A DNA stretch of 64,000 nucleotides from an uncultured Gemmatimonadaceae bacterium. Lineage in GTDB: Bacteria > Gemmatimonadota > Gemmatimonadetes > Gemmatimonadales > Gemmatimonadaceae. The notes below the pieces were generated by a model that made no database searches, was not told where the DNA came from, and was given only the letters and a program-made list of their open reading frames with translations. Shown one piece after another: positions 12,155-32,811 of the stretch. The position numbers and the translations under genes were made by a program. Position 1 is the first letter of the stretch, and each line of letters opens with the position of its first letter. The stretch spans positions 2,688,001-2,752,000 of the forward strand of contig CAVXGK010000002.1 in assembly GCA_963761305.1 (NCBI GenBank). The letters run 5' to 3'.

Positions 12155-12184
12155 CTTCATTCTGACAAGGTAGGGTTCTCTATC

Positions 12185-13419: not shown

Positions 13420-13524
13420 CGCGTGCGGGTCGGTCACACCCAAAGCAAATGATGCCCCCTCGCCGACTCAAGTGCCCGCGAAACGCTTGCTCCCGCCAAG
13501 CACCGCGCTGATCTTAGCCGAACG

Positions 13525-14232: not shown

Positions 14233-14268
14233 CGATCGTCGATACGACTCGCTGCGAGGACGTTCGAA

Positions 14269-14307
14269 AAGACGACGGCCCCGGCGAGATGCCGGGGCCG
14301 TCGTCTT
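14269..14307. terminator. Bidirectional terminator-like hairpin
   Basis: AAGACGACGGCCCCGGC GAGAT GCCGGGGCCGTCGTCTT, 17-bp perfect stem between convergent genes. Confidence 0.8.
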
Positions 14308-14329
14308 GTGTCGTCAACCGTCGGTCAGA

Positions 14330-15061
14330 TCAATGTCCGCCGCCGCCGTCGACAACCGGACCGCCGTCGTCGACGCAATCGGGATCATCGGGCGATGGAT
14401 CGCAGGGAAGTCCGCTGTAGACGTTGTAGCCGCTGAAGTGCTTGATGCGGCGCCACACGAGCCCGGTCGACAGATTCACGTGCGTCACGAGACTCGGATC
14501 GCGGCCGGCGTCCGTCTGTCCCGCGCCGCCGAGCGACGGCTCGTAGTAAATGCCGAGGAAGTGCAACGCCCCGGGGTTCGCCGCGAAGAAGTTCGAGAAC
14601 GTCGTGAGCGACAGCGCGTACGCGCTCGTCGAGATCGTGACGTTCGTGTTCGGATTGAATCGCAGAGCCGGCGAAAAATCCACCGAAAAACCGGAGCTCG
14701 TGAATCCGTAGGTCGCGGTGATCGTCACCGACTGACCGTCGGCGAGCGTCGCACACGGATCATCCCACGTGCCGGGGCCGTAGCTGCTCGCGGCCGGATC
14801 GCAGATCGAGTTCGCCGGGAAATTTAGAGAATACAAAGCGCCGACGGCGAACGAACCGCCAGCGGGCGTCACGGTGAACGAGGTCGATCGAAGGCCGCTG
14901 AAGAGCGCGCCAGAATTCCAATCGAGCGAGGGCGTACCGTTCGCCGGGGCGCGCCGGACTTCTGTTCCGCTCGGCGCAAGAGTCGATTCGCCGCAGCTCA
15001 TCGACAAGACTGCCAACATCGCCGCTCCGACAACAGGGAGGGCACTCGAAAAGCGCCGCAT
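14330..15061 (-). CDS. Hypothetical lipoprotein
   Basis: Signal peptide with lipobox-like SMSC; C-terminal IKHFSGY motif and Cys pairs. Confidence 0.8.
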   Translation of the reverse strand: MRRFSSALPVVGAAMLAVLSMSCGESTLAPSGTEVRRAPANGTPSLDWNSGALFSGLRSTSFTVTPAGGSFAVGALYSLNFPANSICDPAASSYGPGTWDDPCATLADGQSVTITATYGFTSSGFSVDFSPALRFNPNTNVTISTSAYALSLTTFSNFFAANPGALHFLGIYYEPSLGGAGQTDAGRDPSLVTHVNLSTGLVWRRIKHFSGYNVYSGLPCDPSPDDPDCVDDGGPVVDGGGGH

Positions 15062-15160
15062 GATTCACCAGCCATTTCTAAAGAACAACCAGCAAACACG
15101 TCCGTCGGCGGAGCGTAGATCGAAGCTAAGCTCGCTCCCACGGTTGTGCTAGCGTCAACT

Positions 15161-18100: not shown

Positions 18101-18229
18101 GGTCGAGGCCCGGCCGTCGACCTCGGCCACGACGACCGCGATCGGCCCGTGTCCCTTCCGGCCAGCCTCGGCCACCGCCGCCCTCGCGGCAGCGTCGAGC
18201 TCGTTTGCGTCCAAAAAGAGGTGCGACAT
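15161..18229 (-). CDS. Degenerate GGDEF + AAA/STAND-like ATPase + TPR signalling protein
   Basis: LRGGDLVGRVGG and LSVGAA..P.HG GGDEF-like fold; FAGRGQE, GAAGTGTA, VLVLDEMQWAD, TEGNPLF; C-terminal TPR-like repeats. Confidence 0.8.
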   Translation of the reverse strand: MSHLFLDANELDAAARAAVAEAGRKGHGPIAVVVAEVDGRASTPPGTADWQPAEEAEYADVLNTAVAKMIGASLRGGDLVGRVGGRVVMVLANTTADDGRAVGDRLCAAIRVHRFANGFGARTLSVGAAAAPDHGQSYEAVLDAAVDALARIQAQGRDGAAAMPLAHHDALRRPLSIDRFAGRGQEFASLTQWLDEANGGQPRVVSVSGAAGTGTATLLQQLESEARLRGGLFAVVASPKRQLPKPYGVWRALLRATHVFQPSPEREWAELQHLEPALGESLAVPRTGSQFRLLGELTDYVRSLASGRPLVLVLDEMQWADSTSWDALEHLIGQLDRDRIMICMTYRTDGPNDAGWMRRVTSRPELTRQITIANLTRDEVKQWLEAAFHRQQVGRELLAFIYRHTEGNPLFIGHLLRALVEDGSIWHNGTRWEWTPVSELRISAGRTALIAHRLERFSASTHAVLWTAAVVGREFDVHLLVGAGAGSELAVRLALSEAASAGLLRPTRERKRGSFAFTHDDVAEVLIDGLPKQQQRQLHLRVAQALEKLRPDSADDIALHYDAAGESADAYRWGQLAAKAAERVHAFGAASAYLQLAARNATSPGELAEIRVALAHVSETGGRFDEVEELCDLAIEWFDGQGDERRSLTLRRLRERARMELGQPALVTLEALKVLEAEAKRLGFDHESVAVLLMMSQTYGRLGDRRTSERIAAEGVAMAEQVGDTLLLADAVTRLGGAMFSEAPNRAYSILERALSLYESVGDARGQARTYSNMGIMAQFESRLDAAFEAYTRGMTVGRAGGMPDMWGLAALNLGVLSQRCGDYDRARDLFGEALGLFVAVKHSEYQLAALFNMAHVEREVGRWESATQLYETTISLAQRIGQADIEAGAMAGAGLCALELGHADAALAAIQSLESRTKDRTDWYLGREVVEALQIRTDAGDGERRQHAVQRLARSVELAESTDVYCAAWLISACAETVGRIDRPRVTELVRAYAVRVKKLGYPEMTRRFDALESSRERPQP

Positions 18230-18410: not shown

Positions 18411-20300
18411 ATGCGCCAACTCGCTTTCCTGACGTCCGCGCTCGTCTCCGCCGCGTGCAGCGCCCAGGCCCCGCGCCCGCAGGCGACGCCCGTCGCGCCG
18501 GCGTCGCAAACGCCGCTTCAGCCGTCGGCTTCTGCCGCCGCCCCGGTGATGCCCGGCGAGCTGCTGCCCGACGAACAAGTTCAGCAAGTTCTCAATCGCC
18601 TCACGTTCGGCGCCCGCCCCGGCGACGCCGAGAAGGTCCGCGCGATGGGCATCGACAAGTGGATCGATCTCCAGCTGAATCCGGATCGCATTTCGGATCC
18701 CGCGGGCGACGACATCATCAAGAACTACTCCGTCTTCTCGACGCCCACCGGCGACATCGTGGGGCAGTTCGAGGAGTTGCAGCGTTTGCAGCGGCAGGCC
18801 AAGCGCAACGCGAGCGACACGACGATGTCGAAGCCGGAAGAGCGGCAGGAAGTCCTTGCTCGGAATCCGCAGCTCGCGCAGGCCGCGCAGCGCAATCAGC
18901 AGATGGTCGGCCAGGTCCAATCGGCGCAGCTCGCCCGCGCGGTGACGAGCGAGCGGCAGCTCAACGAAGTGATGGTCGACTTCTGGGAAAACCATTTCAG
19001 CGTGTTCGCTGGCAAGGGGCAGACGCGTTTGTATCTCGCGCAGTACGATCGCGACGTGATCCGTCCGCACGCGATGGGAAAATTCCGCGATCTGCTCGGC
19101 GCGGTGGCGCACAGCCCGGCGATGCTCTTCTTCCTCGACAACTGGGAAAGCGCCGCCGACAGCGTTCATCCCACGCTCGCGCAGGCGCGCCGGCCGGCGT
19201 TTCGCCGCGGGGCGTTCGGCACGCTCATCCCGATTCGGCCCGGACCGCAACAGCAGCAGCGCGCCAAGCGCGGCTTGAACGAGAACTACGCGCGTGAGCT
19301 CATGGAGCTGCACACGCTCGGCGTCGACGGCGGCTACTCACAGAAGGACGTACAGGAAGTCGCGCGGGCGCTCACGGGATGGACGTTCAACCGCCAGAAT
19401 GGCGAGTTCGTCTTCAACCCGAACATTCACGACGCCGGCGAGAAGCTGATTCTCGGCCAGCGCTTCCCCGCCGGCCACGGCGAGGACGAAGGCGAGCGCG
19501 TGCTGGACATGGTGGCGCGCCATCCTTCCACGGCCCATTTCATCGTCACCAAGCTCGCGCGTCACTTCGTGAGCGACGATCCGCCGAAACCCCTCGTCGA
19601 CCGCTGCGCGAGTACGTTCACCAAGACTGACGGCGACATCCGCGAGACGCTGCGCTGCGTCGTCACGAGCCCCGAGTTCTTCAGCCGCGCGGCCTATCGC
19701 GCCAAGGTGAAGACGCCGTTCGAGGTCGTGGCCAGCGCGCTGCGCGCGGTCAATGCGAGTCCGGATGCATCGCCTCGCTCGGCGCAGATCGTCGCGCGGC
19801 TCGGCCAGCCGATCTTCGGCCGGCAGACGCCGGACGGTTGGCCCGATCGCGGCGACGCGTGGATGAACACCGGGGCGATCCTCAACCGTATCAACTTCGG
19901 TCTGAGTCTCGCGGCGGGTCAGGTTCCGGGTGCGCAGCTCGCGAACTGGACTGACTTCTCGACGCTTCGTAGCGAGCCGCGCACGCAGCAGGTGGATGCG
20001 GTCGTGAAGTCGATGTTGGGCGGACAGGTGTCGCCCGAGACGCGTCAGGTGCTGATGAGCGGTGAGAATCCGATGCTCGCGGCCAACGACGCGAACGGCA
20101 TGGTCGACAGCTCGTCCATGGATCCAGGCGGCGGACGCCGTGGCGGCCGCGGCGCTCAGCAGCAGCAGAAACCGGACGGCAAGGGATTCCCGCGCGGACC
20201 GGCGGCGCAGATCCCGGGCTTTGGACGGCCGGTGAACCTTCAGGGACTTCCGCAGGTAGTGGGTCTGGCGCTGGGCGCTCCCGAATTTCAACGACGGTGA
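18411..20300 (+). CDS. DUF1800 family lipoprotein
   Basis: Lipobox SAAC; LNRLTFG, QLNEVMVDFWENHF, PAMLFFLDN, NENYARELMELHTLG, LGAPEFQRR. Confidence 0.92.
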   Translation: MRQLAFLTSALVSAACSAQAPRPQATPVAPASQTPLQPSASAAAPVMPGELLPDEQVQQVLNRLTFGARPGDAEKVRAMGIDKWIDLQLNPDRISDPAGDDIIKNYSVFSTPTGDIVGQFEELQRLQRQAKRNASDTTMSKPEERQEVLARNPQLAQAAQRNQQMVGQVQSAQLARAVTSERQLNEVMVDFWENHFSVFAGKGQTRLYLAQYDRDVIRPHAMGKFRDLLGAVAHSPAMLFFLDNWESAADSVHPTLAQARRPAFRRGAFGTLIPIRPGPQQQQRAKRGLNENYARELMELHTLGVDGGYSQKDVQEVARALTGWTFNRQNGEFVFNPNIHDAGEKLILGQRFPAGHGEDEGERVLDMVARHPSTAHFIVTKLARHFVSDDPPKPLVDRCASTFTKTDGDIRETLRCVVTSPEFFSRAAYRAKVKTPFEVVASALRAVNASPDASPRSAQIVARLGQPIFGRQTPDGWPDRGDAWMNTGAILNRINFGLSLAAGQVPGAQLANWTDFSTLRSEPRTQQVDAVVKSMLGGQVSPETRQVLMSGENPMLAANDANGMVDSSSMDPGGGRRGGRGAQQQQKPDGKGFPRGPAAQIPGFGRPVNLQGLPQVVGLALGAPEFQRR

Positions 20301-20333
20301 GCCCGGCCGTAAATAGGACAAAGGGATAGCGAT

Positions 20334-21641
20334 ATGAATCGTCGAGTATTCATGAAGTCGGGCGCGATGGCGCTGGCCACGATGGGGCTCAACCCCACCT
20401 TCCTCCGCCGCACTGTGTTCGCGCAGGATCTGCTCAAAGGAGCGGCGCTCAAGGGGAACGGACGCGGCAAGGTGCTCGTCGTCCTCTTCCAGCGCGGCGC
20501 GGCCGACGCCCTGAACGTCGTCGTGCCGCACGGTGAGCGGAACTACTACGCGATGCGTCCGTCGATCGCGATTCCGCGGCCGGTCTCCGGCACGGCGAAC
20601 ACGGCGATCGATCTCGACGGATTCTTCGGGCTTCACCCGTCGCTCTCGCCGTTCAAGAAGCTGTGGGACGACGGGATCCTCGCGCCGGTTCACGCCGTCG
20701 GATCGCCGAGCAATTCGCGGTCGCACTTCGACGCGCAGGACTACATGGAAAGCGGCACGCCCGACAACAAGGGCACGCGCGACGGTTGGTTGAATCGCTA
20801 TCTCGCCGTGAAGGGCACCTGCGACGAATGCAAGTTGCACGACGCGAGCGGTGCGACGGCGACCGGCGCGAAGGCGGCGCCGTTCCAAGCCGTGTCGATG
20901 ACGCCGCAGACGCCGCGCATTCTCGAGGGCGACTCGCCGACGGTGGCGATGAACAGCATCGACGAGTTCACCATCCGAACCAACGGTACGCAAGCGGAAC
21001 GCATCGAGGCGCTCTATCGCACGGGCAACGCCGACGTCGTGCACGCCGCCGGCGGCGAGATGTTCGAGGCGATGAAGATCCTCAAGGCGGCGAACCCGCA
21101 GCAATACACCCCGGAGAATGCCGCCGACTACCCGCGGACACCGTTCGGCCAGCATCTGAAGCAGATCGCGCAGCTCATCAAGGCGGACGTGGGTCTCGAG
21201 ATCGCGTTCGCCGACGTCGGCGGCTGGGACACGCACGTGAATCAGGGCGGCGCGACTGGTCAGCTCGCGCAGCGCCTCGACGATTTCTCCAAGTCGATCG
21301 GGGCGATGGTGCAGGACCTCGGCAACCGCGTGGCCGACGTCACGATCCTCACGATGTCCGAGTTTGGCCGTACGGCGCGCCAGAACGGCAACGGTGGCAC
21401 CGACCACGGCCACGCGACGTCGATGTTCGTGATCGGCGGCGACGTGAAGGGCAAGAAGGTCCACGGCAAGTGGCCGGGCCTCGAACCCGAGCAGTTGAAC
21501 GAAGGCCGCGACCTCGCGCTGACGACCGACTTCCGGTCAGTCTTCTCGGAAGTGGCGTTCAAGCATCTCGGCGCCGCCAAGATGGACGCCGTGTTCCCGG
21601 GTTTCCACGGCGACGAGTCGAAGTGGGTCGGCGTGCTCTAG
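20334..21641 (+). CDS. DUF1501 family protein (Tat-exported)
   Basis: MNRRVFMK Tat signal; FQRGAADALN, SRSHFDAQ, GGWDTH, SEFGRT, GTDHG. Confidence 0.92.
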   Translation: MNRRVFMKSGAMALATMGLNPTFLRRTVFAQDLLKGAALKGNGRGKVLVVLFQRGAADALNVVVPHGERNYYAMRPSIAIPRPVSGTANTAIDLDGFFGLHPSLSPFKKLWDDGILAPVHAVGSPSNSRSHFDAQDYMESGTPDNKGTRDGWLNRYLAVKGTCDECKLHDASGATATGAKAAPFQAVSMTPQTPRILEGDSPTVAMNSIDEFTIRTNGTQAERIEALYRTGNADVVHAAGGEMFEAMKILKAANPQQYTPENAADYPRTPFGQHLKQIAQLIKADVGLEIAFADVGGWDTHVNQGGATGQLAQRLDDFSKSIGAMVQDLGNRVADVTILTMSEFGRTARQNGNGGTDHGHATSMFVIGGDVKGKKVHGKWPGLEPEQLNEGRDLALTTDFRSVFSEVAFKHLGAAKMDAVFPGFHGDESKWVGVL

Positions 21642-21666: not shown

Positions 21667-21705
21667 AAATCGGACGTCTGATATCTGACATCAGACGTCC
21701 GATTT
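21667..21705. terminator. Hairpin built from heptamer repeats between convergent operons
   Basis: AAATCGGACGTCTGAT / ATCAGACGTCCGATTT 16-bp perfect stem; same GANNTC(T/A) units as 12057-12098. Confidence 0.8.
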
Positions 21706-21710
21706 CTCTT

Positions 21711-24380
21711 TCAGCTCTGCGGCTTCCACCCGGTGAATACGTTCATCCAGCTGCGCACAACGCGTGGCAAAAAGCGCTGTGGCCGCACGCGATCGATCAT
21801 CGCGTAGAACGAGATGCGATCCACGAGGAGCTCACAGAGCGCGGCCCTGAATCCGGCGTCCCACTCCTCTTGGTAGAGGTCGACGCTGCCGGCCGACGCG
21901 AGCAGCGATCGGTAGCGCTCCACCCACGACGCGATCGTTTCGCCGGACGCGTTCGGCGGCAGCACGAACACGAGGAACTCGGCGAGGTCGCGCTGCGGCG
22001 CGCCGATCGTCGCCAGCTCCCAATCGAACGCGCACAGATGGAGTCCGGTCGCGCCACGCCGAAGCGCCACGTTGCGCGGATTGAAATCGTTGTGAAGCAG
22101 CGTGCGCGGCGACGCGTCGAGCACGTTCGCCCACGAGGCGATGTCGCTCACCAATCGCGCGTGGATGCGTCGGAGCGCCGGATCGCGGAATGCCGTCGAC
22201 CGCTCGTGGGCGTGCTCGGCCAGCGCGCGCCAGAGAGGCGCCATCGCGACGTACTTCACCGAATCGCGGCGCGGCGGCAGCCACGATGTGGTCGCCAGCG
22301 ATTCGTCGCCGAGTCCGACCGCGTGAATGTCTGCCAGGCCGGTGAGCGCCGCGTCGATCGCGGCGGCGTTCCAGCGCGCCGGATCGTTGGCGTTGATCAG
22401 CACGGCGTCGTCGATCCGCTCGAGGGCAATCAGCCATCGACGTCGGGCGTCGTCGCGCTCGATGAGTATCGGACGCGGCGTGTGCGAACGAAGGCGCGGA
22501 TCGCGAAGCGCGTAGACCGCCAGCTCGCGCACCTGCGAGCGCGTGATGCCGAGGTCGTCTCTGAATTTCGTGACGGACTCGCCCAATGCAGGCGAGACGA
22601 GGCCCGCGAGCGCTACCGCCACGTCGACCGAGTGCGTGTCGGCCGCCTTGGATTTCACGAACAGGCGCGCATCGCGACTCGCACCATGCTCGTCATGGAC
22701 GGAGACCACGGCGTCGAACAAGCCGGCCTGCGTTCCCTCCCCCGCCCGCCACGCCGTCAACTCGGCGACGATGCTCTCGTCGCTGGCGATCGGCGTCAAG
22801 TCCACTCGGTCGAGGTACAGCGGACCGGCACCGAGCCAATCACTCAGCCCGGCGGCCAGCGCATCGCTCGGCTCGAGGAGCGGACGTCGTTCCTTTCGAG
22901 CGGGACAAGCCACCGCGGCGCCAATATCCGGCACGATGCCCTGACGAACGAAATCGTCGAAGTACCGTGATAGAAGGTGCGAGTCTACGTCGCCGACGCG
23001 CACGCCGAGCGCGTCGAGCGCACGCAGTGACACGGCGCCGTTCACGCTCGACCGCCGCGACTCTTCGAGCAGCTCGGGCAGCGTGAGCGCGTTCTCCGCC
23101 GCAATGCGTCGGAGAAAGAACGATCGCAGCGGGAACAACGGATTGTTCGCGTCGGCCGTCGCTTTCAGCCGCTCCGCCCACTCGGCGTACGGCAGTAATG
23201 CGACGTCGTAGCCGCGCAGGCGCATCCAGAGCGCGCACTCGCGCCAGTGCCGCGGCCGCGCGGCGATCACGTGATGAACGCTCGAGCCCACGTCGTGCGC
23301 GAGTGCAAGCCGCACGATCGCCCGCGCCGCGTCGTCCACCGGCACGCAGTCCATTCGCCAATCGAGATCGGGAGCGGCGCGCATGCCAATGCATCCGGCG
23401 ATGAACCGCGACGTGAGGTCGTCCACGTTCGACCGTCCGCGCGCGTCGCCACTGATGAGCGACGGCCGCACGATCGTCACCGGAAGCCCGCGCGCGCCAG
23501 CTTCGCGCACCAGCGCTTCGGCCACGCATTTACTCTGGGCGTAACCGAGCCACAGTCCGTGTACGCTGTCGAAGACGTCGGTGCGCTCGTCGACGCTCCG
23601 CCGGTTCGACGTGGAGTGGCAGACGCTGGTGCTCGACACGAAGTGCAGCGGCTTGGGCGTGCCCACGCACGCGAGCCGCAGCAACTCGCGCGTGCCGAGC
23701 ACGTTCGCGTCGCGCAGGCGTTCGTACGAGTGCACCCAATTGACGTCGGCCGCCGCATGGTAGATGGCTTCGATCTCGGCGGCCAACGCCGAAAACGCGC
23801 CCGCGTCGCGACCCAAGCGCGGCCGGGAAAGATCGCCGTCCACGACGCGAATGCGGTCCACGTCCGCGTCGTGCCAGAGCCCGTACGCGGTCAGGTTGCG
23901 ACGCACGCGCGCGAATCCATCGCCGCGCCCCGCTCGAACCAGACAATGCACCGTTGCCGTCGTTTCGTCGAGCAACGTGCGCAAGAGATACGCGCCGAGG
24001 AAACCCGTCGCCCCGGTGAGCAGCACGCGGCGTGCGGCGCGAGTGGGGGGCGCGATGCCGCGAGGCGCGATCTCGGGCGGCAGCGCGGCATCGACGCGCA
24101 TCTGTCTGATTTGTCGCTCGCGAGCACCGTCGGTGTTTCCGTCCTCGATGAAGCGGCACAGCGAATCGATATCCGGATGTTCGTGCACGGCGGTGAGCGG
24201 CAGCTCGATTCCCAGGTCGTCCTCGATCGCCGCGGTGAGCTCGACCGCGGCCAACGAATCCATTCCGAGCGAGGCGAACGTGTCGAACGGTCCGACGCGG
24301 GCGACACTCACGCGGAGTGTCGCGCCGACGACCGCCGCCAGGCGATCGCGAAGCCCCTCGCGAGTCGCGACGCTCGTCAC
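21711..24380 (-). CDS. Acyl carrier protein - thioester reductase (NAD_binding_4) - APH/choline-kinase-like phosphotransferase fusion
   Basis: ACP motif LGMDSLAAVEL; reductase LLTGATGFLG and GYAQSK; kinase motifs LLHNDFNPRNV and FDWE. Confidence 0.88.
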   Translation of the reverse strand: MTSVATREGLRDRLAAVVGATLRVSVARVGPFDTFASLGMDSLAAVELTAAIEDDLGIELPLTAVHEHPDIDSLCRFIEDGNTDGARERQIRQMRVDAALPPEIAPRGIAPPTRAARRVLLTGATGFLGAYLLRTLLDETTATVHCLVRAGRGDGFARVRRNLTAYGLWHDADVDRIRVVDGDLSRPRLGRDAGAFSALAAEIEAIYHAAADVNWVHSYERLRDANVLGTRELLRLACVGTPKPLHFVSSTSVCHSTSNRRSVDERTDVFDSVHGLWLGYAQSKCVAEALVREAGARGLPVTIVRPSLISGDARGRSNVDDLTSRFIAGCIGMRAAPDLDWRMDCVPVDDAARAIVRLALAHDVGSSVHHVIAARPRHWRECALWMRLRGYDVALLPYAEWAERLKATADANNPLFPLRSFFLRRIAAENALTLPELLEESRRSSVNGAVSLRALDALGVRVGDVDSHLLSRYFDDFVRQGIVPDIGAAVACPARKERRPLLEPSDALAAGLSDWLGAGPLYLDRVDLTPIASDESIVAELTAWRAGEGTQAGLFDAVVSVHDEHGASRDARLFVKSKAADTHSVDVAVALAGLVSPALGESVTKFRDDLGITRSQVRELAVYALRDPRLRSHTPRPILIERDDARRRWLIALERIDDAVLINANDPARWNAAAIDAALTGLADIHAVGLGDESLATTSWLPPRRDSVKYVAMAPLWRALAEHAHERSTAFRDPALRRIHARLVSDIASWANVLDASPRTLLHNDFNPRNVALRRGATGLHLCAFDWELATIGAPQRDLAEFLVFVLPPNASGETIASWVERYRSLLASAGSVDLYQEEWDAGFRAALCELLVDRISFYAMIDRVRPQRFLPRVVRSWMNVFTGWKPQS

Positions 24381-26170
24381 GTGCCGGTGCCGAGTGCGAC
24401 GGCGAATTCGGGATCCGCCACCCAGCGCGCCACTTCGTCGAGCGAGCGGTCACCGAATGCGTCGCGACACGCACGGCGGCGCAGCTTCCCGCTCGACGTC
24501 TTCGGCATCGTGCCGTGACGGAGCACGCTCACGGCCGAGAGCACGATGCCGTGGTGATCGACGACCGCCTCGCGCACACGTTGGATCAGTTCAGCCAGGA
24601 ACGCGTCGCAGATGGCGGTATCGTCGAGCTCCGGTGCGTGCCGGCGGTCGACTTCCACGGCAAGGGCCACTGCTTCGCCGCCTTCGCCGTCGATCGAAAA
24701 CGCAGCCGAGCATCCGGGCCTGATCGCCGCGTGCTGTCGCTCGGCGGTGCGCTCGACGTCCTGCGGGTAGTGCTTGAAGCCGCGCACGATGAGCACGTCT
24801 TTCAAGCGCCCCGCGATGAACAGCTCTCCGTCGTGCAGCGCGCCCAAGTCGCCCGTACGCAGGAACGGACCTTCACCGCCGGCGAGGCGCGCCTGGAACG
24901 TCTCTCGCGTCTCGTCGTCACGACGCCAGTAGCCGCGCGCCACGCTCGGCGACTCGACCCAGATCTCTCCGATGCGCCCGTCGGCGCATCGGAGACGCGT
25001 GTGCGGATCGACGATCAGCGCTCGTGTCCCGAACGACACCGGACCGCTCGACACGAGCGGACGCGTGCCCGAGTTCGACGCGCGCGCGATGCGGAGCCGG
25101 CCGCGCGTCAGGGCATCGGTGGAGACGTCGTGAATCACTGGCTCGTAGTGGCGCCCGCCGGTGGAGACGAGCAGCGTGGACTCGGCGAGGCCGTACACGG
25201 GATAGAACGAGCGCCATTCGAAGCCAACGCCTTGGAATCGCGCGTGAAACGCTTCGAGCGTCTCGGCGCGGATCGGTTCGGCGCCGTTGTACGCGGTGCG
25301 CCACGAGCTGAGATCCAGCGCGTCGCGTTGCGCGTCGGTGACTTTGCGAACGCAGAGATCGTAGGCGAAGTTCGGCCCGCCGCTCGTCGAAGCGCGATAA
25401 CGCGTGATCGCGCGCAGCCACCGAATCGGCCGGTGGAGGAACGACGCCGGCGCCATGAGAAATGCCGGATAGCCGCCGAAGATCGGACCGAGCACGCCCT
25501 CGATGAGTCCCATGTCATGAATCACCGGGAGCCACGACACGGATCGCGTCGAGCGGTCGCGGTCCGCGGCGCTGCTGGCGTAGGCGAGGTTGTGGAGCAG
25601 GTTCGCGTGCGACACCATGACGCCGCGCGGCGACGCCGTCGAGCCGGACGTGTACTGAAGAAACGCGAGATCGTGCGTGTCGATCGGCACGTCGTGCCAC
25701 TCGCCCGTGTCATGCTCGAACAGCGTGTCGGTGGCGAGCCACGGAATCGAGGCGAGCGCCGGCGCGTCGATCGACATGCGCGTCGCGGCGTCGGCGACGC
25801 TCGCGTTGGCGAGAACGATCGCGACGTCGGCGTCGGCGACGATGCTCAGCAAGCGCGGCAGCGTGCGCGACGCCTGTGACGGTTGCGGCGGATACGCCGG
25901 CACGGCGATCACGCCCGCGTACAGGCAGCCGAAGAACGCGGGGATGAAGTCGAGCCCGGGCGGATACAGCAGCAGGGCTCGATCGCCCGGGCTGACGCCG
26001 CGCTCGCGCAGCGCGCGGGCCACGCTTCGTGCGCGCTCGTCCAACTCGGCGTACGTGAGACGCGGACCTTCGCGCTCGCCGTCGATGAGGAACGTGAAAG
26101 CGGTGTCGCCTCCCTGCTCCGCCGCGCGGGATGCGAGCAGATCGACGAGCGTCGAATGCGGCGCGCTCAT
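24377..26170 (-). CDS. Fatty acyl-AMP ligase (FAAL)
   Basis: AFLQYTSGST, SWLPVIHDMGLI, NGAEPI, YGLAESTL, LRTGDLG, GRLKD, PKTSSGKLRR. Confidence 0.93.
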   Translation of the reverse strand: MSAPHSTLVDLLASRAAEQGGDTAFTFLIDGEREGPRLTYAELDERARSVARALRERGVSPGDRALLLYPPGLDFIPAFFGCLYAGVIAVPAYPPQPSQASRTLPRLLSIVADADVAIVLANASVADAATRMSIDAPALASIPWLATDTLFEHDTGEWHDVPIDTHDLAFLQYTSGSTASPRGVMVSHANLLHNLAYASSAADRDRSTRSVSWLPVIHDMGLIEGVLGPIFGGYPAFLMAPASFLHRPIRWLRAITRYRASTSGGPNFAYDLCVRKVTDAQRDALDLSSWRTAYNGAEPIRAETLEAFHARFQGVGFEWRSFYPVYGLAESTLLVSTGGRHYEPVIHDVSTDALTRGRLRIARASNSGTRPLVSSGPVSFGTRALIVDPHTRLRCADGRIGEIWVESPSVARGYWRRDDETRETFQARLAGGEGPFLRTGDLGALHDGELFIAGRLKDVLIVRGFKHYPQDVERTAERQHAAIRPGCSAAFSIDGEGGEAVALAVEVDRRHAPELDDTAICDAFLAELIQRVREAVVDHHGIVLSAVSVLRHGTMPKTSSGKLRRRACRDAFGDRSLDEVARWVADPEFAVALGTGT

Positions 26171-26961
26171 ACGAGCACCTCGACGGGAGCGGACGAAGGG
26201 AGCACGTCGATGGTGAGCGAGTCCGGCAGTCGGCCGGTGGATCGCATCGACTCGTGGACGCGAACGAACAGGTCGTGCACGGCGTCGCGGTTGCGTTCCA
26301 GGTCGGCGACGACCCAGTAGCTCGTATCGATCGGCGGGAGAAAGTAGACGTCGATCATACCAGGTTTGGCGTCGTATCCCATACCGGGGTTCATCTCGTT
26401 CGGGATCGCGAAGTAGATGGGCACGATCCGCGCGTGGAGACTCGTGGCGAGATGGAACGAGCCTTTGTTGAAGTGCCCGATCTCGCCGGTGGTGATGCGC
26501 ATGCCCTCGGGACTCAGATACACCGAGTCACCCGTCTCGCGAAGAATGCGGTCGGCGCGCTTGAAGATCTCGACACGCTTCGTCGGATATTCCTGCGGCA
26601 CGGTCCAGAAGATCCGGATGAGCGTGCCGATGATTCCCGTCGGCGGCATCCACTTGAGGAAGCCGCTGAGGAAGAACCGCGTGCGCGGCAGTCCCAGCGC
26701 GATCAGGACGAAGAGATCGAGCGTCGACGTGTGGTTCGAGACGTAGATCGTCTGGATGTTCGCGGGCTGCGGGGCGCCGTGCACGCGATAGCGCACGCCC
26801 CAGATGCGAAGCGCGGCTTCGCCCAACCAGCGCGCCATGACCTCGGAGTAGAATCGGCGCGCCAGAGAACACGTCGGGATCGCGACGATCAGCATGGCGA
26901 TCGCGCCGAACGTGAGGAAGATGAACGTCGCCGCGAGACGAACACGCATGCCGGAGCTCAT
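26167..26961 (-). CDS. Lysophospholipid acyltransferase (PlsC family)
   Basis: NHTSTLD (HxxxxD) and SPEGMR motifs; start at MSSGM gives an ATGA overlap with the upstream gene. Confidence 0.9.
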   Translation of the reverse strand: MSSGMRVRLAATFIFLTFGAIAMLIVAIPTCSLARRFYSEVMARWLGEAALRIWGVRYRVHGAPQPANIQTIYVSNHTSTLDLFVLIALGLPRTRFFLSGFLKWMPPTGIIGTLIRIFWTVPQEYPTKRVEIFKRADRILRETGDSVYLSPEGMRITTGEIGHFNKGSFHLATSLHARIVPIYFAIPNEMNPGMGYDAKPGMIDVYFLPPIDTSYWVVADLERNRDAVHDLFVRVHESMRSTGRLPDSLTIDVLPSSAPVEVLV

Positions 26962-27944
26962 ACGCGTCTCCGGCAGATCACGGTCTGCATCGCGAAGTTG
27001 AGCTGCTTCTCGAACGCCAGCACGGGCGAGAACAGGATCTGGCCCAGGAAGTACGGGTAGATCGCGCGCGAGAGGTTGAGCCCTTTGCCGCGGAGCAGCT
27101 TGAAAGCCGCGCCGGCAAAGATGTAGAAAAAGGCCGGGAACGCGCCGTACGGCAGATAATCCACCACCTCGAGGCCCGCCTTGTCCATCGCCAACAGGAA
27201 TGTCGTGCGGTCGTAGAGTACCGTGTGCTGCGGCGCCTGTAGTCCGGGCCACCGATCGCCGTAAAGGCGGAACGTGGTGCTATCGAGCCTCGGCACCTCA
27301 ATGATCAGGCGGCCGTCGGGCTTCAACAGACGGCGCGCCGTGGCCAGCGTGCGCATCGGATCGTAATCGTGCTCGAGGAAGTGCCACATCGTCACGAGGT
27401 CGAAGGGCTTCTCGCCGAACTCCTGCTCGTAGAAGAGTCCACAACGAAAATCGACGCCGTCGAGCGACGGGCTCGCGCTCAGATCCTTGAAGTCCACCCC
27501 GGTCGCGCGCGCGCCGTAGCGCGAGCGCATCTTCTGGAGGAACGTGCCGACCGCGCAGCCGACGTCGAGGACGTCGCTGTGCGAGTCGAGCGCGACGTAC
27601 CGGCTGACGATCTTGTCCTTCTGCCGGTCGTGCCGGTCCATCGCCCAATTGAAGAAACCGGTGAGCACGCCCCAATCCTTCTTCTTGCGGTGCGCGATGT
27701 ACTCGTCGTCGTAGTATGACTTGATGTGCTCGACGGTGAGCCGCGGGTTCTGGTAGCGCAGGCCGCAGCGCGCGCACGTGACGAAGGTGAATCGTCCCGG
27801 TTTGCCGCTGAGATCGTCTTGGGCGGTGATGAAGGGTGAGGACTCGGAGCCGCCGCACAGATAACAGCACACGGTCTCGAACTGGCTGGCGACGGGCGCC
27901 TCGAGCGCGCGCGACGTGTCGGGCGGAATGGCAATCGCGGTCAT
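26958..27944 (-). CDS. Class I SAM-dependent methyltransferase with N-terminal CxxC...CxxC
   Basis: CYLC and CARC; VLDVGCAVG, FDLVTMWHFLEH, LKPDGRLIIEVP; start MTAIA with ATGA overlap. Confidence 0.9.
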   Translation of the reverse strand: MTAIAIPPDTSRALEAPVASQFETVCCYLCGGSESSPFITAQDDLSGKPGRFTFVTCARCGLRYQNPRLTVEHIKSYYDDEYIAHRKKKDWGVLTGFFNWAMDRHDRQKDKIVSRYVALDSHSDVLDVGCAVGTFLQKMRSRYGARATGVDFKDLSASPSLDGVDFRCGLFYEQEFGEKPFDLVTMWHFLEHDYDPMRTLATARRLLKPDGRLIIEVPRLDSTTFRLYGDRWPGLQAPQHTVLYDRTTFLLAMDKAGLEVVDYLPYGAFPAFFYIFAGAAFKLLRGKGLNLSRAIYPYFLGQILFSPVLAFEKQLNFAMQTVICRRRV

Positions 27945-28603
27945 GGGAGCTTCCCTCCGAGAAGGGTTGCGGTAGCGATGAGCATGGACACGAGCGCGCA
28001 TTCCGAGATCGCGATCCGGCGCGCGACCAGAGACGCACGGAGCGAAGGATCGTCGACGACCTCGTAGACGCAGAGAACGAGGTACAGCGCCGCGAGCGCG
28101 GCGAGCGGCGGCGCCGCCGGCGATACGGCGAAGGCCAGCGCCGGGTACTTGAGCAGCACGATGTGGCCATTGATCACGCCGCGTGTGACGACGGGTCGAA
28201 GCCGGTACCACGCGCCGAGAACGGCGACGGCCCCACCGACCACCCCGAGCCGTGCCGCGGCGCGCGGTCCAAGCGCGATGAGCGCCAACCCTGCCACGGC
28301 GAGGGCGATCGCCACCGCAATCAGCGGCGCGATCGACTCCGCGACGACCGTAACCCGGTTCGGATGCTCGCGCGCATCTCTCGAGCGATCCTCGATGTCG
28401 TCCCAGACGCGGAACGCGAGCATCAAAACGAGTCCCGTCACGGTCGCGCGCGCGAACTCGCTCACCGAGCGGCCGCCGTTCCACCCGTTCACCTGTCCAC
28501 CCGTCCACCCGTCCACCGCCGCCACAACCAGCGCCAGCGGCACGAACACGCGCAGCCGCGCGCGCTCGGCGAGGTATCGTACGATCAGCTCACGCGACGA
28601 CAT
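27941..28603 (-). CDS. UbiA prenyltransferase-like membrane protein (short)
   Basis: Multiple TM segments; Asp-rich motif RVWDDIEDRSRDAREHPNR matching the first UbiA motif; second acidic motif YEVVDD. Confidence 0.65.
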   Translation of the reverse strand: MSSRELIVRYLAERARLRVFVPLALVVAAVDGWTGGQVNGWNGGRSVSEFARATVTGLVLMLAFRVWDDIEDRSRDAREHPNRVTVVAESIAPLIAVAIALAVAGLALIALGPRAAARLGVVGGAVAVLGAWYRLRPVVTRGVINGHIVLLKYPALAFAVSPAAPPLAALAALYLVLCVYEVVDDPSLRASLVARRIAISECALVSMLIATATLLGGKLP

Positions 28604-31232
28604 GCACCTCTCCGCGATCGCCGTCCACCGTGACCGTCGTGCCGGATGGAATGCGCACCATGGCGTTCTTCACGCCCACCACGCACGGAATGCCGAACTC
28701 CCGGGCGATGATCGCGCCGTGCGACAACATCCCACCGCGCTCGATGACCAGTCCGGAAATGAGGAAGAACGCCGGCCCCCATCCGGGATCCGTCTGCTTG
28801 GTGACGAGCACGTCACCGCGCGCGAGGAGCGCCGTCTGCGTCACACTGTCGAGCACCGTCGCACGTCCGGTGACACGTCCGCCGCACGCGCTCGTCCCCG
28901 TCAACACACCGCTCGAAGTCGCCGCCGCCGATGTTTGCCAGTCCACCGGTCCATCGGTCCGCCGGTCCGCCGGCATTTCCAAGTACTCGCCTTCAGGCAG
29001 CGTGAACGAATCGGGCGGATTCGTCGCCGAGAGTCGCGCGTGATCGGTCTTGCGCGTAGCGATCAACGTGCGAGTCGCGCCGGGGAACATCGCGCTGCCG
29101 CCAGTCAGCTCGAGCAGCTCCTGCCACGTCAGGAAGAACACGTCGTCACGCTCGGCGATCGTTCCGCGGCGCGTCAGCTCGGTGCCGATCGCAAGAGCGA
29201 TTCGCCGGCACCGGCTGTAGAGCAGCGCCTGTTTGAGCCGCGCGCGTTCGCGATATCGAATCGCGGCGTGCACGCGCGGCACGAGAAGCTCGAGCAGCAT
29301 GGCGCGGGCCGTCGTGAGACGCTCGCCGACGCGCCCCGTCTCCTCCTCTCGCGCAGCAGCCTGCGCACGCAACGCATCGCGCGGCGAGTCTGCGTCGAGC
29401 CTGGCATAGGCGCGGAGCACGTCGATCAGCGGCGCCGGATCCTCCTGGAAGCTCGGCGTCGTGAGCATCAGCTCTTCGGAGCACCGAAAGCCCCAATCAT
29501 CCAGGTACCGCTGAAACGCCACGCGGAACTCGGCGTAGAGCGCGTCGACGCGAATTGCGTTCAACACCGCGTTCGGGTCCGCGTTCTCGAACAACGCGTT
29601 CAACGCGCCGTCGCGACGCACCAGTCGAGAGAGATCCCACAGTCGCAGCACCGGCTCACCGCTCACCACGTTCGGAATCGCCTTGAGCAGCGACGTGTGC
29701 GTCGCTTCGCCGAGTCCGGCGCCGCGCAGCAGGCGCTCGAGCGCGCCATAGCTGATCATCGCCGCGCCGTCGGCGAGTGAGGCATCGAGCCATTTGTGGC
29801 ACCGAATGTCGATGAAGCCGGCCAGCGTGTCGCGTAGCTCGGCAAGCGACATCGTGTCCAGAAGTGAGGGTTGTGTGCGCGCCGCGAACTCGTCCACCGA
29901 GCGCTCGAACCGCGCCACGCGACGCTCGAGCTGGACGAGAAGCGCCGTCGCTTTCGCCAGGATCACGGACACTTCGGCGATCTGCCGGACCTTGCTGCGG
30001 CGAGCAACCGGATTCGGCTCGACCTCGTTACCGTCGGCGCCGACGAACGTGTCGAAGCTCCGCGTCAGCGCGCTGCCGAAAGGTGCGAGGCGAAGCACCG
30101 AATGAATCGCCGAGAGATTGTAGTATATCCGGGCGCCGTGCACGCCGATGATGCGCTGGAACTCTGACTCCATCGCGCGCACTCGGGCGGCCGAGACGCC
30201 GCAGGCGACGGCGAGGTTGCGGAAGTAGTGCGTGTATCCCGCCGCGGCGATCGAGTACAGCAGCGGCGAAATCGGCCGCGGAAAATTCTCGTTGACGTTC
30301 GCGTTCGACCACGTGATGAGTCGTCGCGGTGACGCGACGCTCGCCGGCGGCATCGACACCGGCGCGGTGATCGGCCGCGACTGCACGACGTAGAGCGCGC
30401 CGCTCTGATCGATCGCCCATTCGACGTCCTGCGGCGCGCCGAACTCCCCTTCGAGTGCAAGGCCGGCGGCTCTGAGCTGCTCGGTCTCGCGATCACTCAG
30501 CGAACACGCAACGTGTCGATCGAGATGACGAGCCGTGCCACTCCGGCGATCGAGCGCCAGGCGGCCGGGATCCACAGCGCCGGCGACGAGCTTGTCGGCG
30601 AGACCCGGTCCGTACTCGACGAGGATCTCCCCGCTCGACGTCGTCGTGAACGACACGCCTGCTGCCCGCGCGTCGACCTGCCGCTGAATCACCACGCCCA
30701 TGCCACGCATCGGCGCGCCGCGCGCCCTCCTATAGAAGGCCGCGCGCTCCGACCACAGCGAGGCCCACACGTCGCGCACGGCTTGCTCGAGCATCGCCTG
30801 GTCGGTCACGTGCAGAATCGAGTCGAGTTGGCCGGCAAACGACTCGGCCGCTCCATCTTCCCCCACCGCCGAGCTTCGCACGACCACGGGGCCACGGGCG
30901 AGGAACGGCGCCGCATAGATCGCCAGCTGTTCTCGCAGCGTTCGGGGCAAGGCCGCGGTTCGCACGAACGACGGCCAGTCGGATGTGACGGCGCCGGCCG
31001 ACGCAACGTGAGCGTCGAGCGCGTGCACGGTGAGCACGAAGCCCTCCGGCACCGGCAATCCCGCACGCAGCATTCGGCCGAGTGCGTACGCTTTGCCACC
31101 GACGAGACTCGGATCGGCCGCCGCTACGAGCGGAGCGCAGAAAATGTTCGTGGACTCGGCCAACACGGTCGCCGGATCAGCGACGATCGGCGATGCGTCC
31201 GGCGGAGTGAGCGAGACTTCGACGGTCGTCAT
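28590..31232 (-). CDS. PEP-utilising enzyme / small-molecule dikinase (ATP-grasp - substrate domain - His swivel; rifampicin-phosphotransferase-like architecture)
   Basis: VGGKA, VVRSSAVGEDG..SFAGQ, PQDVEWA, QSRPIT; C-terminal TDPGW and GGMLSHGAIIAREFGIP (phospho-His); start MTTVEV with ATGA overlap. Confidence 0.9.
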   Translation of the reverse strand: MTTVEVSLTPPDASPIVADPATVLAESTNIFCAPLVAAADPSLVGGKAYALGRMLRAGLPVPEGFVLTVHALDAHVASAGAVTSDWPSFVRTAALPRTLREQLAIYAAPFLARGPVVVRSSAVGEDGAAESFAGQLDSILHVTDQAMLEQAVRDVWASLWSERAAFYRRARGAPMRGMGVVIQRQVDARAAGVSFTTTSSGEILVEYGPGLADKLVAGAVDPGRLALDRRSGTARHLDRHVACSLSDRETEQLRAAGLALEGEFGAPQDVEWAIDQSGALYVVQSRPITAPVSMPPASVASPRRLITWSNANVNENFPRPISPLLYSIAAAGYTHYFRNLAVACGVSAARVRAMESEFQRIIGVHGARIYYNLSAIHSVLRLAPFGSALTRSFDTFVGADGNEVEPNPVARRSKVRQIAEVSVILAKATALLVQLERRVARFERSVDEFAARTQPSLLDTMSLAELRDTLAGFIDIRCHKWLDASLADGAAMISYGALERLLRGAGLGEATHTSLLKAIPNVVSGEPVLRLWDLSRLVRRDGALNALFENADPNAVLNAIRVDALYAEFRVAFQRYLDDWGFRCSEELMLTTPSFQEDPAPLIDVLRAYARLDADSPRDALRAQAAAREEETGRVGERLTTARAMLLELLVPRVHAAIRYRERARLKQALLYSRCRRIALAIGTELTRRGTIAERDDVFFLTWQELLELTGGSAMFPGATRTLIATRKTDHARLSATNPPDSFTLPEGEYLEMPADRRTDGPVDWQTSAAATSSGVLTGTSACGGRVTGRATVLDSVTQTALLARGDVLVTKQTDPGWGPAFFLISGLVIERGGMLSHGAIIAREFGIPCVVGVKNAMVRIPSGTTVTVDGDRGEVHVVA

Positions 31233-31813
31233 GCCGGTCGCGCCTTCACGCCGATCCGGTACAGCAGCACGCTGAACGCCAAGTGAATTCCCGGTCCGAT
31301 CACCAGCACGTACAGCCACAGCATCCATGGCGTCGGCACGACCAGTGACATCGCGATGAGCATTCCGAGGATGGAATCGACGCGATCGACGATGAACGTC
31401 ACCGCCGCGCCTACGCGGCCTGGCGCCGCCATCCCGGGCGCGACGTCGAACTGCCGTTTGACGAACGAATTCGGCAACTCACCGAGCATGAACCCAAGCC
31501 CGGCGACCGCGCCGAGGATCGCGTAGCCCGATGCGTCGAGTCGCCAGAGCTCACCGGCGATCGATGGCGAAACGCGTGAGACGATCGCGTGAAGCGCCGC
31601 GAACGCCGCCGCCGCCGCGGGAACCATCACGACAAACCCCCGCACCGTCTTGTTCTCGCCGAAAAGTCGCTTGCCGCGAACGTGCGCGCCGCCGTCGAGC
31701 GGCACGAGCAGACGTCGCGATGCCGGCATGCGAAGCCACGCGGAGTGCGCGAGCCCGGCGAGGATGAACGCGACCGTGAGAAACAGCGCGCACGCGAGCG
31801 GATCGAGAGTCAT
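31229..31813 (-). CDS. CDP-archaeol synthase (CarS/DUF46)-like cytidylyltransferase
   Basis: PLDGG..RGKRLFGENKTVRG, GELPNSFVKRQ..VAPG and DRVDS motifs; hydrophobic, 194 aa. Confidence 0.82.
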   Translation of the reverse strand: MTLDPLACALFLTVAFILAGLAHSAWLRMPASRRLLVPLDGGAHVRGKRLFGENKTVRGFVVMVPAAAAAFAALHAIVSRVSPSIAGELWRLDASGYAILGAVAGLGFMLGELPNSFVKRQFDVAPGMAAPGRVGAAVTFIVDRVDSILGMLIAMSLVVPTPWMLWLYVLVIGPGIHLAFSVLLYRIGVKARPA

Positions 31814-31821
31814 GTCGCGGC

Positions 31822-32811
31822 TCAGATGTCCGCGCCGGTCTCGAGGCGGTTGTGAAAGAGAAACAGCTCGCCTCGGAGCCCGCGTGCGCCCCGAATCCAC
31901 GCCCACAATCCGATCTCGTTTTCGGTTTCGTACCGCACCTCGCCGAGTCGATAGCCGGGCACGTAGGGGTACATGTGATGCAGTTCGTGCGCGTCTATGT
32001 GGAGCAGCATCGCCGACAGCCAGCGCGGGAGCACCAACGACCGCGTGAACACCTCCTGCTCGATCGTCGGGAACGGCCGGACGGGTTCGCCGTGGCTGAG
32101 GCGTTGCGGGATGTGCGTGTGCTGGCTGAGGAGCAGCAAATCCTCGGCGACGAGCGTGAGGAGGAGCGCGACGCCGACGAGACGGAGCGTCGTCATCGGC
32201 CCGATCACGACGATGATCGCGACATAGGCGAGCAGCAGCGCGAGCGAGCTGACGGCGAGCCTTCGCCGATCGTCGCGCTTTGGAAACAGCTCGAGCAAGC
32301 GCGGCCAATTCCAGAAATTGTTCACGCGATACAGCACCGAGAACAACGGAATCCAGAGACGCCAGCAGACGTTGACCAGCACGCGTTCGAGCGTGCCCAA
32401 CTCGCGCGGCACCAGCGCCGCCGTGGTCGGATCCACGTCCTGCCAGCCGGTCCACTTGTGGTGACGGCCGTGGATGCGTTTCCAGTTGTAGAACGGGATG
32501 ATCGAGAAGAACCCCGCGACCTGGCCGAACAGCGCGTGCAGTCGCTTGGTGCGGAACATCGTCTCGTGCCCGCACTCGTGCAGCACGGCGAACCACTGCA
32601 CGAACGCCAGCGCGAGCACGACCTGACCCGCGAACCAGATCCACACGGACGCGTTTCGCGACAACCAGAAGCCGGCCCCGGTGACCCCGGCGCATTCGGC
32701 GACGCACAGCGCGCCGGCGACGTTGGACGGCCGCAAGTGCGCCAGCTCGCTCGGCTTGGGCGGGAGCGGTGGTGGTGATGCGTCAGCAGTTGTGGCTGGG
32801 GTTTGCTGCAC
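31822..32811 (-). CDS. Membrane fatty acid desaturase family protein
   Basis: His boxes HECGH, HGRHH, HELHH; GTG start with GGAGG 5 nt upstream. Confidence 0.88.
   Translation of the reverse strand: MQQTPATTADASPPPLPPKPSELAHLRPSNVAGALCVAECAGVTGAGFWLSRNASVWIWFAGQVVLALAFVQWFAVLHECGHETMFRTKRLHALFGQVAGFFSIIPFYNWKRIHGRHHKWTGWQDVDPTTAALVPRELGTLERVLVNVCWRLWIPLFSVLYRVNNFWNWPRLLELFPKRDDRRRLAVSSLALLLAYVAIIVVIGPMTTLRLVGVALLLTLVAEDLLLLSQHTHIPQRLSHGEPVRPFPTIEQEVFTRSLVLPRWLSAMLLHIDAHELHHMYPYVPGYRLGEVRYETENEIGLWAWIRGARGLRGELFLFHNRLETGADI

Follow-up and report, generated by a model that had tools for sequence, protein, structure and literature searches.

What might a bacterium make with a thioester reductase that is followed, in the same polypeptide, by a kinase? 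The question is raised by a gene on the minus strand (21711..24380) of a 64,000-nucleotide stretch of DNA from an uncultured Gemmatimonadaceae bacterium (GenBank assembly GCA_963761305.1, contig CAVXGK010000002.1, positions 2,688,001 to 2,752,000), here called the window. A first-pass annotation had described the gene product as a fusion of an acyl carrier protein (ACP), a thioester reductase and an APH-type kinase, and had proposed that the fatty alcohol released by the reductase is phosphorylated in the same chain. The gene was found to be a single open reading frame (ORF) of 889 amino acids (aa) with zero internal stops, and its GTG start codon overlaps the stop codon of a fatty acyl-AMP ligase (FAAL) gene (GTGA). 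Judging from sequence comparison, the fusion would turn a fatty acyl chain into a fatty-alcohol phosphate (alkyl phosphate), a reading to which we assign a probability of about one half. The architecture itself is real, conserved, built from known families and apparently undescribed.

Pfam and NCBIfam models and an alignment of homologues were utilized in order to delimit the three domains, all on the minus strand. The acyl carrier domain (residues 12-78; 24147..24347) matches PF00550 (PP-binding) at E 2e-14, and its phosphopantetheine residue Ser42 (codon 24255-24257) is Ser in all 104 alignment rows covering that position. The SDR-type thioester reductase (residues 119-481; 22938..24026) carries the motifs GATGFLG and YAQSK, has Y280/K284 in 108/108 rows, matches Pfam NAD_binding_4 at residues 121-355 (E 7e-61) and scores 298.6 bits over its whole span against TIGR01746 of NCBIfam, vs a cut-off of 213.35. 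The kinase (residues 501-889; 21714..22880), supported by Pfam, alignment, structural model and fold search, matches APH at residues 618-824 (E 9e-12) and EcKL at 647-828 (E 2e-6); all four Pfam matches exceed their cut-offs. The features of a thioester reductase are present in the TIGR01746 score, the Rossmann and YxxxK motifs and the carrier domain ahead of the reductase. The C-terminal placing usual for such domains is not, as 390 aa of kinase come after.

A search with the kinase region returned 580 matching proteins among 8000 candidates, and the 120 listed homologues were aligned. The beta3 Lys (K576), N770 and the metal Asp (D786) are kept in 120/120 of these, and the alphaC Glu (E619) and the catalytic Asp (D765) in 119/120. 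The beta3 Lys, alphaC Glu, HxDxxxxN loop and DxE metal motif of the APH/choline kinase-like superfamily are accordingly all found, the latter two in the sequence as HNDFNPRN (residues 763-770; 22071-22094) and DWE (residues 786-788; 22017-22025). The tri-domain fusion of the first-pass annotation, including a non-terminal reductase with an intact HNDFNPRN motif behind it, was thereby borne out. A database protein of 362 aa from a 1.03-Mb contig (P0122) is identical to residues 528-889 of the fusion (21714-22799); some other assembly or gene call thus appears to split the gene, which is intact in the window.

Structure prediction, one of the checks that the annotation had named, yielded a kinase fold for the C-terminal region. 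The AlphaFold2 model of residues 501-889 (pLDDT 95.2) is a bilobal APH/choline-kinase fold whose best match is 8agy, corramycin phosphotransferase (Z 18.9, rmsd 3.7, 288 residues aligned), and each of the top 50 rows of the fold search has the title of a kinase-fold entry. The matches, from Foldseek also, were to APH, choline and homoserine kinases, and a 25-hydroxysteroid kinase was among the fold matches; in the ESM Atlas the kinase matched APH/EcKL clusters only. The conserved catalytic residues of all three domains, together with the kinase fold, count in favor of alkyl phosphate formation.

How widespread the arrangement is was evaluated by a scan of GTDB genomes, in which at least 599 stretches matched, 439 of them encoding relatives; the GTDB locus counts refer to the best 80. 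These comprised 66 loci of the thioester reductase type, 9 with an HMG-CoA-reductase-like (HMGR-like) domain and 5 untyped. A single ORF encodes both reductase and kinase in 63 of the 66 reductase-type loci, and the three exceptions (L026, L037, L045) come from assemblies rich in frame breaks. The fusion is a family trait. Chance or an assembly artefact as its origin was ruled out by the 580 homologues and the 63 single-ORF loci. Of 1050 cluster representatives, the best 150 were sorted by architecture into ACP-reductase-kinase (39), reductase-kinase (44, of which 17 short), HMGR-like-kinase (13), FAAL-fused (4) and kinase only (49, many fragment-like), plus one probable chimera. A seeming dikinase-kinase fusion (P0306) was set aside as a deletion or chimera because its catalytic His region is missing and the sequence jumps into the reductase tail. 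FAAL is fused to reductase-kinase in one chain of ~1,480-1,560 aa at L057, L058, L066 and L074, and at L060 (1737-4183) a stand-alone member of the kinase family, not preceded by a reductase, adjoins a radical SAM gene that follows it directly. Host metagenome-assembled genomes (MAGs) belong to Gemmatimonadota, Acidobacteriota, Planctomycetota, Pseudomonadota, Nitrospinota, Myxococcota and Verrucomicrobiota. Within the best 80 of 439, the loci nearest to that of the window are from Gemmatimonadaceae. The operon has a patchy distribution, with matches in 3 of 301 genomes from the window's phylum, its own genome counted.

The substrate of the kinase was approached through its second fusion partner, the HMGR-like enzyme, which occurs in front of it in 9/80 best GTDB loci, in 13/150 best representatives and in 29 loci overall; a metagenome scan with these fusions gave 76 loci (592 relatives, best 80 kept). 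In human numbering, the catalytic residues E559/K691/D767/H866, whose roles in HMGR are taken from the available part of PMC9500038, are kept in 22/22 rows. The S684 position is occupied by Glu (23) or Asp (2) in the 25 readable sequences, the K735 position is Lys in 0/22 and the L862 position is Phe in 27/27. Changes at S684, K735 and L862 are those reported for FcrA, an HMGR homologue that reduces long-chain acyl-CoA to fatty alcohol and is inactive on HMG-CoA (PMC11948995, as far as its available text goes). The alternative partner of the kinase therefore shows the FcrA signature: catalytic residues kept, S684 changed to Glu (Asp in two), the HMG-binding Lys lost and L862 bulky. The kinase thus stands behind two unrelated reductases, and the chemistry common to these would be the conversion of an acyl thioester to an alcohol. 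From the same FcrA-type partner, a four-electron reduction to the alcohol, rather than release of the aldehyde, is suggested for the fusion in the window.

A mevalonate kinase behind a true HMG-CoA reductase was considered and ruled out by the pocket residues and by five HMGR-like-kinase host genomes, MAGs of unstated completeness and exclusive of two Myxococcales hosts, in which HMG-CoA synthase was matched in 0/5 and DXR in 5/5. S684E as a marker specific to kinase-fused enzymes was rejected as well; it is present in 16/45 other HMGR-like loci and so marks FcrA-type enzymes broadly. FcrA-type HMGR-like genes lie directly beside a wax ester synthase at L115, L117 and L141 (3/11 such loci with scanned neighbours), which agrees with the published FcrA context. 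The first ~140-250 aa of the HMGR-like fusions at L073, L075, L079, L082, L083 and L086 form an N-terminal extension that gave no significant Pfam match in the three scanned and may correspond to the Lad domain of FcrA. Among plasmids the kinase had a single match, to a Streptomyces protein with an HMG-CoA-reductase domain ahead of the kinase. Its locus (L004, Streptomyces sp. NBC_01435 plasmid, 12012-16924) holds a GH3 ligase, the HMGR-like-kinase fusion and a thymidylate-kinase-like gene amid polyketide synthase (PKS) and nonribosomal peptide synthetase (NRPS) genes, and no dikinase or UbiA match was obtained in it. A nucleoside monophosphate kinase could give a second phosphate; the same trio is found in L094, and L109 has a thymidylate-kinase-like gene beside a dikinase.

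A sister operon lends further support. Seven loci carry an HMGR-like gene and DUF3419 with the APH kinase absent. Plasmid records from the cultured Roseinatronobacter sp. S2 and Brevibacillus laterosporus B9 are part of this set, in which a CoA ligase is present in 5/7 and UbiA, dikinase and GNAT genes in 6/7. All seven encode a membrane protein with an invariant RKxxH motif (R31, K32, H35) near the first transmembrane helix. According to the available part of 10.1101/2023.07.17.549440, RKxxH is the clamp motif of CTP-dependent prenol kinases. The profile of this protein matched neither the window nor any of L004-L086, and it had no match among the kinase-fused metagenome loci either (19/29 fused loci are at least 10 kb). 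In the Brevibacillus locus (L165, 12838-15910) the last gene of the sister operon is a cytochrome P450 gene, with an ETX/MTX2-family gene immediately behind it.

The two comparative supports for alkyl phosphate formation are thus that the other fusion partner of the kinase carries the FcrA signature and that the sister operon swaps the kinase for a protein with a prenol-kinase motif. The FAAL would likely load a fatty acyl chain onto the ACP of the fusion, the reductase would likely release it as a fatty alcohol using NAD(P)H, and the kinase would likely use ATP to convert this alcohol into an alkyl monophosphate. From the latter the remaining genes of the operon would build a phospholipid. 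Of the release-and-activate architecture first proposed, reduction followed by phosphorylation in one chain is retained as the best-supported reading of the sequences. The alkyl phosphate is more plausibly an intermediate, on which the CarS-like, dikinase and UbiA-like gene products would act, than an end product.

These genes belong to an eight-gene operon on one strand in which the fusion is last, in the order desaturase, CarS-like, RPH/PigC-type dikinase, short UbiA-like, SAM methyltransferase, PlsC-like, FAAL and fusion. Six of its seven junctions overlap, the remaining one being an 8-base gap, and the catalytic motifs of each gene are conserved. Read from the fusion outwards on the minus strand, the FAAL-type ligase (24377..26170; 597 aa; Pfam, NCBIfam), whose stop overlaps the fusion start, is followed by a PlsC/AGPAT-like acyltransferase (26167..26961; 264 aa) with PF01553 at E 1e-15 and the NHxxxxD motif kept. 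A class I SAM methyltransferase with an N-terminal CxxC...CxxC segment (26958..27944; 328 aa; Pfam, NCBIfam, motifs) comes next, and then a short UbiA-superfamily membrane protein (27941..28603; 220 aa) in which the first Asp-rich motif is kept and the second degenerate. The dikinase (28590..31232; 880 aa; Pfam, NCBIfam, motifs) consists of PPDK_N, a middle domain and a His swivel domain with SHG; its domain order and His motif are those of the RPH/PigC type, and the RPH, PigC and RedH equivalog cut-offs are not reached. The CarS-like membrane cytidylyltransferase of the CDP-archaeol synthase family (31229..31813; 194 aa) scores 46 bits vs a cut-off of 22 for PF01864, and lies below the NF003114 equivalog cut-off (61 vs 148). 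The membrane fatty-acid desaturase family protein (31822..32811; PF00487, E 4e-23) keeps its three His boxes; its start was set at GTG 32811, and the longest ORF would begin at 33000.

The UbiA-like protein, the least secure identification in the operon, was modelled at pLDDT 91.6. The model matches UbiA-family and other diphosphate-using transferases at Z 13.1-13.7, which is the range of helical bundles and borderline by the tool, and Foldseek gave zero matches at E 0.001. By profile, chlorophyll synthase (E 2e-5) and digeranylgeranylglyceryl phosphate (DGGGP) synthase (E 0.03) were matched, and R65, D68, D76 and R83 are invariant, in line with a kept first Asp-rich motif.

Conservation of the operon was counted in the 47 reductase-type GTDB loci with at least 9 kb upstream, where some gene misses fall at the flank edge. 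The order of the detected genes was the same in 47/47. Dikinase, UbiA-like and methyltransferase genes were found in 47, CarS-like and acyltransferase genes in 46, desaturase and FAAL in 42 and the ACP in 40. The ACP is absent too in 6/6 loci that lack the FAAL, and four of these, placed in the kinase tree (a quick tree, as are all trees here), did not group, indicating loss at several places. The joint loss fits a generic acyl donor that central metabolism also supplies. One locus (L005, G221:C4, 6296-10878) holds a broken operon copy with desaturase and CarS-like genes intact, the dikinase cut short and the middle genes missing, its 3' part matching the reductase tail and about the first half of the kinase.

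The surroundings of the operon in the window were recorded also. A terminator-like hairpin (21673..21692, minus strand, consensus match only) lies directly 3' of the fusion gene; the promoter/terminator scan was at chance level, with 7 terminator-like sites vs 6.7 expected in the region. Two short palindromes with a GACGTCTGA core, similar to one another, stand behind genes at 12061-12093 and 21672-21699 and are possibly a small repeated terminator element. Converging on the 3' end of the operon is a DUF1800-DUF1501 gene pair (18411-21641, plus strand), and the same pair flanks the operon in G131, a genome of the same genus. The 5' end adjoins a probable lipoprotein of 329 aa without Pfam match (33034-34023, plus strand), a similar ORF being found beside the G131 operon. 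Further off, a 1022-aa protein (15161-18229, minus strand) looks by eye like a combination of GGDEF-like, AAA ATPase and TPR repeat regions.

What would the operon do with an alkyl phosphate? Tentatively, and with the odds somewhat against it, we propose the following route. The dikinase would convert alkyl-P to alkyl-PP, the UbiA-like protein would move the alkyl group onto a glycerophosphate to give an ether, the PlsC-like enzyme would acylate this ether intermediate and the CarS-like enzyme would form the CDP-lipid. The head group would be added by CDP-alcohol transferases encoded elsewhere; the genome of the window has four of these, all outside its operon, and two phosphopantetheinyl transferases. 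Desaturase and methyltransferase would tailor the lipid.

The neighbours of the HMGR-like-kinase fusions (29 loci with flanks of 2 to 22 kb) include a dikinase in 19, a UbiA-like gene, homologous to the short form of the window, in 17, a CarS-like gene in 13, an acyl-CoA ligase in 13, a PssA/archaetidylserine-synthase-like gene in 12 and GNAT in 11. CdsA is found in L093. The unknown gene of the HMGR-type operons matched GNAT clusters only in the ESM Atlas. The fullest archaeal-style lipid tail is in L104 (6335-11926), where dikinase, UbiA, PssA-like, phosphatidylserine decarboxylase and CarS-like genes form one run. PssA-like and phosphatidylserine decarboxylase genes point to a phospholipid product.

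Several observations weigh against the proposed function or the route built on it. The UbiA-like protein is short (220 aa), scores 19.7 bits vs a Pfam cut-off of 34.2 and has a degenerate second Asp motif (YExxD), and a saturated alkyl diphosphate is a poor electrophile. The RKxxH protein is identified by its motif and one weak PF01148 (CTP_transf_1) match (E 0.003) in the 7 segments scanned and had no match in NCBIfam or the PDB; the CTP_transf_1-type family also takes in diacylglycerol kinases, and the swap to this protein traces to a single split between lineages rather than to repeated events. A clade of their own is formed by the kinase-fused HMGR-like enzymes, apart from those adjoining wax synthase, in a tree without assayed FcrA or canonical HMGR; as the fusions are one clade in both kinase and reductase trees, one swap would account for them. 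The desaturase was seen in only 2 HMGR-type loci among the neighbours scanned. Likeness of the kinase to ACAD10/11 is limited to the catalytic-loop region (~85 profile positions), and the HYDxK lysine and beta3 Arg of that family are not shared, the fusion having HNDFN and a beta3 Lys. Finally, three related gammaproteobacterial MAGs (L075, L081, L082) have a reductase-kinase with GNAT and a PssA-CarS fusion, and an operon-type dikinase and UbiA-like gene were not found in their genomes with these queries, which returned both from the control G305; the ether step is accordingly not obligatory for the kinase.

In an unlikely alternative, the best placed of four, the reductase product would first be turned into a monoalkylglycerol or a long-chain diol, and this would be the substrate of the kinase. 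This would yield a mimic of lyso-phosphatidate, finished by the acyltransferase and the CarS-like enzyme, or, in the diol version, a glycerol-free lipid of the Thermomicrobium kind. It would supply the substrate with a free hydroxyl and a phosphate that PlsC-like and CarS-like enzymes need. R590/D690/K692 are kept in the HMGR-like partners, and the ligases of these resemble OleC. OleC acts on 3-hydroxy acids. The same three residues are kept, however, in HMGR-like enzymes beside wax synthase and are thus no sign of a hydroxylated substrate. The 1,2-diol lipid route of Thermomicrobium is unexplained in the available text of PMC2615216. The best solved relatives by kinase profile were the ACAD11 kinase (E 7e-8) and 9o56, which makes ACAD11 the top PDB profile match, and the accessible part of PMC13596139 gives 1-O-alkylglycerol as the substrate of the ACAD10 kinase. 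Against this, the ACAD10-specific catalytic-loop lysine is missing from the fusion kinase, and fusion to two unrelated reductases argues for direct action on the reductase product.

The alkyl phosphate might instead be used as such, which we regard as quite improbable. The first three steps would be those of the favored reading and the difference lies downstream only: the CarS-like enzyme would give a CDP-alkanol and the PssA-like enzyme a glycerol-free alkyl phosphodiester, or the UbiA-like protein, on the model of decaprenyl-phosphate phosphoribosyltransferase, would take alkyl-P as acceptor. The reductase-kinase, GNAT and PssA-CarS fusion of L075, L081 and L082 would be a minimal cassette for this, and the top fold match of the UbiA-like model is a membrane phosphoribosyltransferase, 8j8j (Z 13.7), on a par with DGGGP synthase (Z 13.1). 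The cassette comes, however, from one MAG lineage of unstated completeness and may be a remnant, and dikinase and UbiA-like genes are in all 47 reductase-type loci with enough flank.

A further reading, very unlikely, takes the operon product to be a lipid natural product that is secreted or toxic, and the kinase to be a self-protection or pro-drug step. Corramycin phosphotransferase as best fold match (Z 18.9), the scores of the dikinase against PigC/RedH models, the MMPL, GH3 or ABC exporter genes observed in some HMGR-type loci and the PKS/NRPS surroundings of the Streptomyces locus speak for it, and tambjamine/prodigiosin-like condensation by a PigC-type enzyme is a parallel. A fold Z of 15-19 is, however, common to many small-molecule kinases, the eight-gene operon is without pyrrole, aminotransferase or exporter gene, and CarS/CdsA, PssA-like, phosphatidylserine decarboxylase and PlsC genes indicate the chemistry of membrane phospholipids. 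Phosphorylation of a hydroxyl on a carrier- or CoA-bound acyl chain, before or apart from reduction and for instance to prime an elimination, is highly improbable: the ACP in the same chain, the 25-hydroxysteroid kinase match and the 4-hydroxyacyl-CoAs phosphorylated by ACAD10/11 (as cited in the available part of PMC13596139) favor it, but the kinase is retained in loci that have lost both FAAL and ACP, as well as in HMGR-like fusions of the CoA type, and the operon has no conserved dehydrogenase or lyase gene.

Alkyl phosphate formation was then set against known systems. The fusion is a member of the thioester-reductase and APH superfamilies and lies outside the ACAD10/11 and ElbD families. 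With the terminal reductases of NRPS and carboxylic acid reductases (CAR) (TIGR01746; MxcG, Lys2, CAR) it shares a carrier followed by an SDR-type reductase domain with intact Rossmann and YxxxK motifs, and a separate adenylating loader; unlike them it continues into a 390-aa kinase, has no condensation domains and lies in a phospholipid-type operon. ACAD10-type kinase domains phosphorylate lipid hydroxyls and carry the DWE motif (PMC13596139, available part), which, with the profile matches to the ACAD11 kinase and 9o56, counts in favor of alkyl phosphate formation too. The fusion kinase resembles those of ACAD10/ACAD11 in its APH fold, DWE motif, predicted lipid hydroxyl substrate and fusion to an acyl-thioester redox enzyme, and differs in having HNDFNPRN for HYDxK, beta3 Lys for Arg and a biosynthetic operon setting; by sequence it is a member of the APH superfamily outside that family, and the comparison is one of working only. 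FcrA is related through the signature of the alternative partner and the five host genomes without HMG-CoA synthase match, whereas the window's own reductase is unrelated in fold and the kinase-fused HMGR-like forms are a separate clade. The words 'kinase' and 'phosphotransferase' are absent from the main text on FcrA, leaving aside Fig. 4B of fused domains and the supplements (PMC11948995). In the available part of the Lipocone paper, HMGR with a GHMP kinase is a different context.

Myxococcus ElbD likewise brings together ligase, ACP, fatty acyl reductase (FAR) and AGPAT-like acyltransferase, and its N-terminal FAR-like domain is a precedent for a non-terminal fatty acyl reductase (PMC9131029). 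It differs in that the reductase is FAR1-like and no kinase, dikinase, UbiA or CarS partner is mentioned in the available text of that paper; FAR, ACS, ACP and AGPAT form one chain there, and four activities on three genes plus an extra kinase are found here. Prenol salvage (VTE5/FOLK/PolK, VTE6, UbiA-family transferase) offers the same presumed series of alcohol, P, PP and UbiA-family transfer, and late archaeal lipid synthesis (DGGGP synthase, CarS, archaetidylserine synthase) the CarS-like and archaetidylserine-synthase-like genes of the operons. These routes use an allylic isoprenoid, whereas the chain here would be a fatty alkyl from the same polypeptide; the first kinase differs in being a soluble APH-fold protein, and an RPH/PigC-type dikinase is proposed as the second. 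By analogy, the fusion would act as an NRPS/CAR reductase coupled to a kinase for lipid alcohols, with late steps of the prenol-salvage and archaeal type coming after.

As bacterial alkyl ether lipid routes, AGPS exchange, Ger/PlsAR ester reduction and ElbD (chemistry unresolved) are given in 10.64898/2026.06.23.733905, the available part of which has no alkyl-phosphate step. A targeted full-text literature search, with most subscription journals, figures and supplements outside its reach, found no description of the fusion or the operon. It is possible, if rather doubtful, that the operon is a new route to non-isoprenoid bacterial ether phospholipids on archaeal/prenol logic. The front end of such a route would have been built in at least three ways, namely SDR reductase with APH kinase, FcrA with APH kinase and FcrA with a membrane prenol-type kinase, which is put forward with the same reserve. 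If the fusion makes alkyl phosphate, this would be a new activity for the APH kinase fold, and as a soluble single-chain enzyme it is directly assayable. It would also give FcrA-type enzymes a role beyond wax synthesis, provide one for orphan bacterial CarS, UbiA and dikinase genes, and offer a candidate pathway for the unexplained ether lipids of soil bacteria such as Acidobacteriota.

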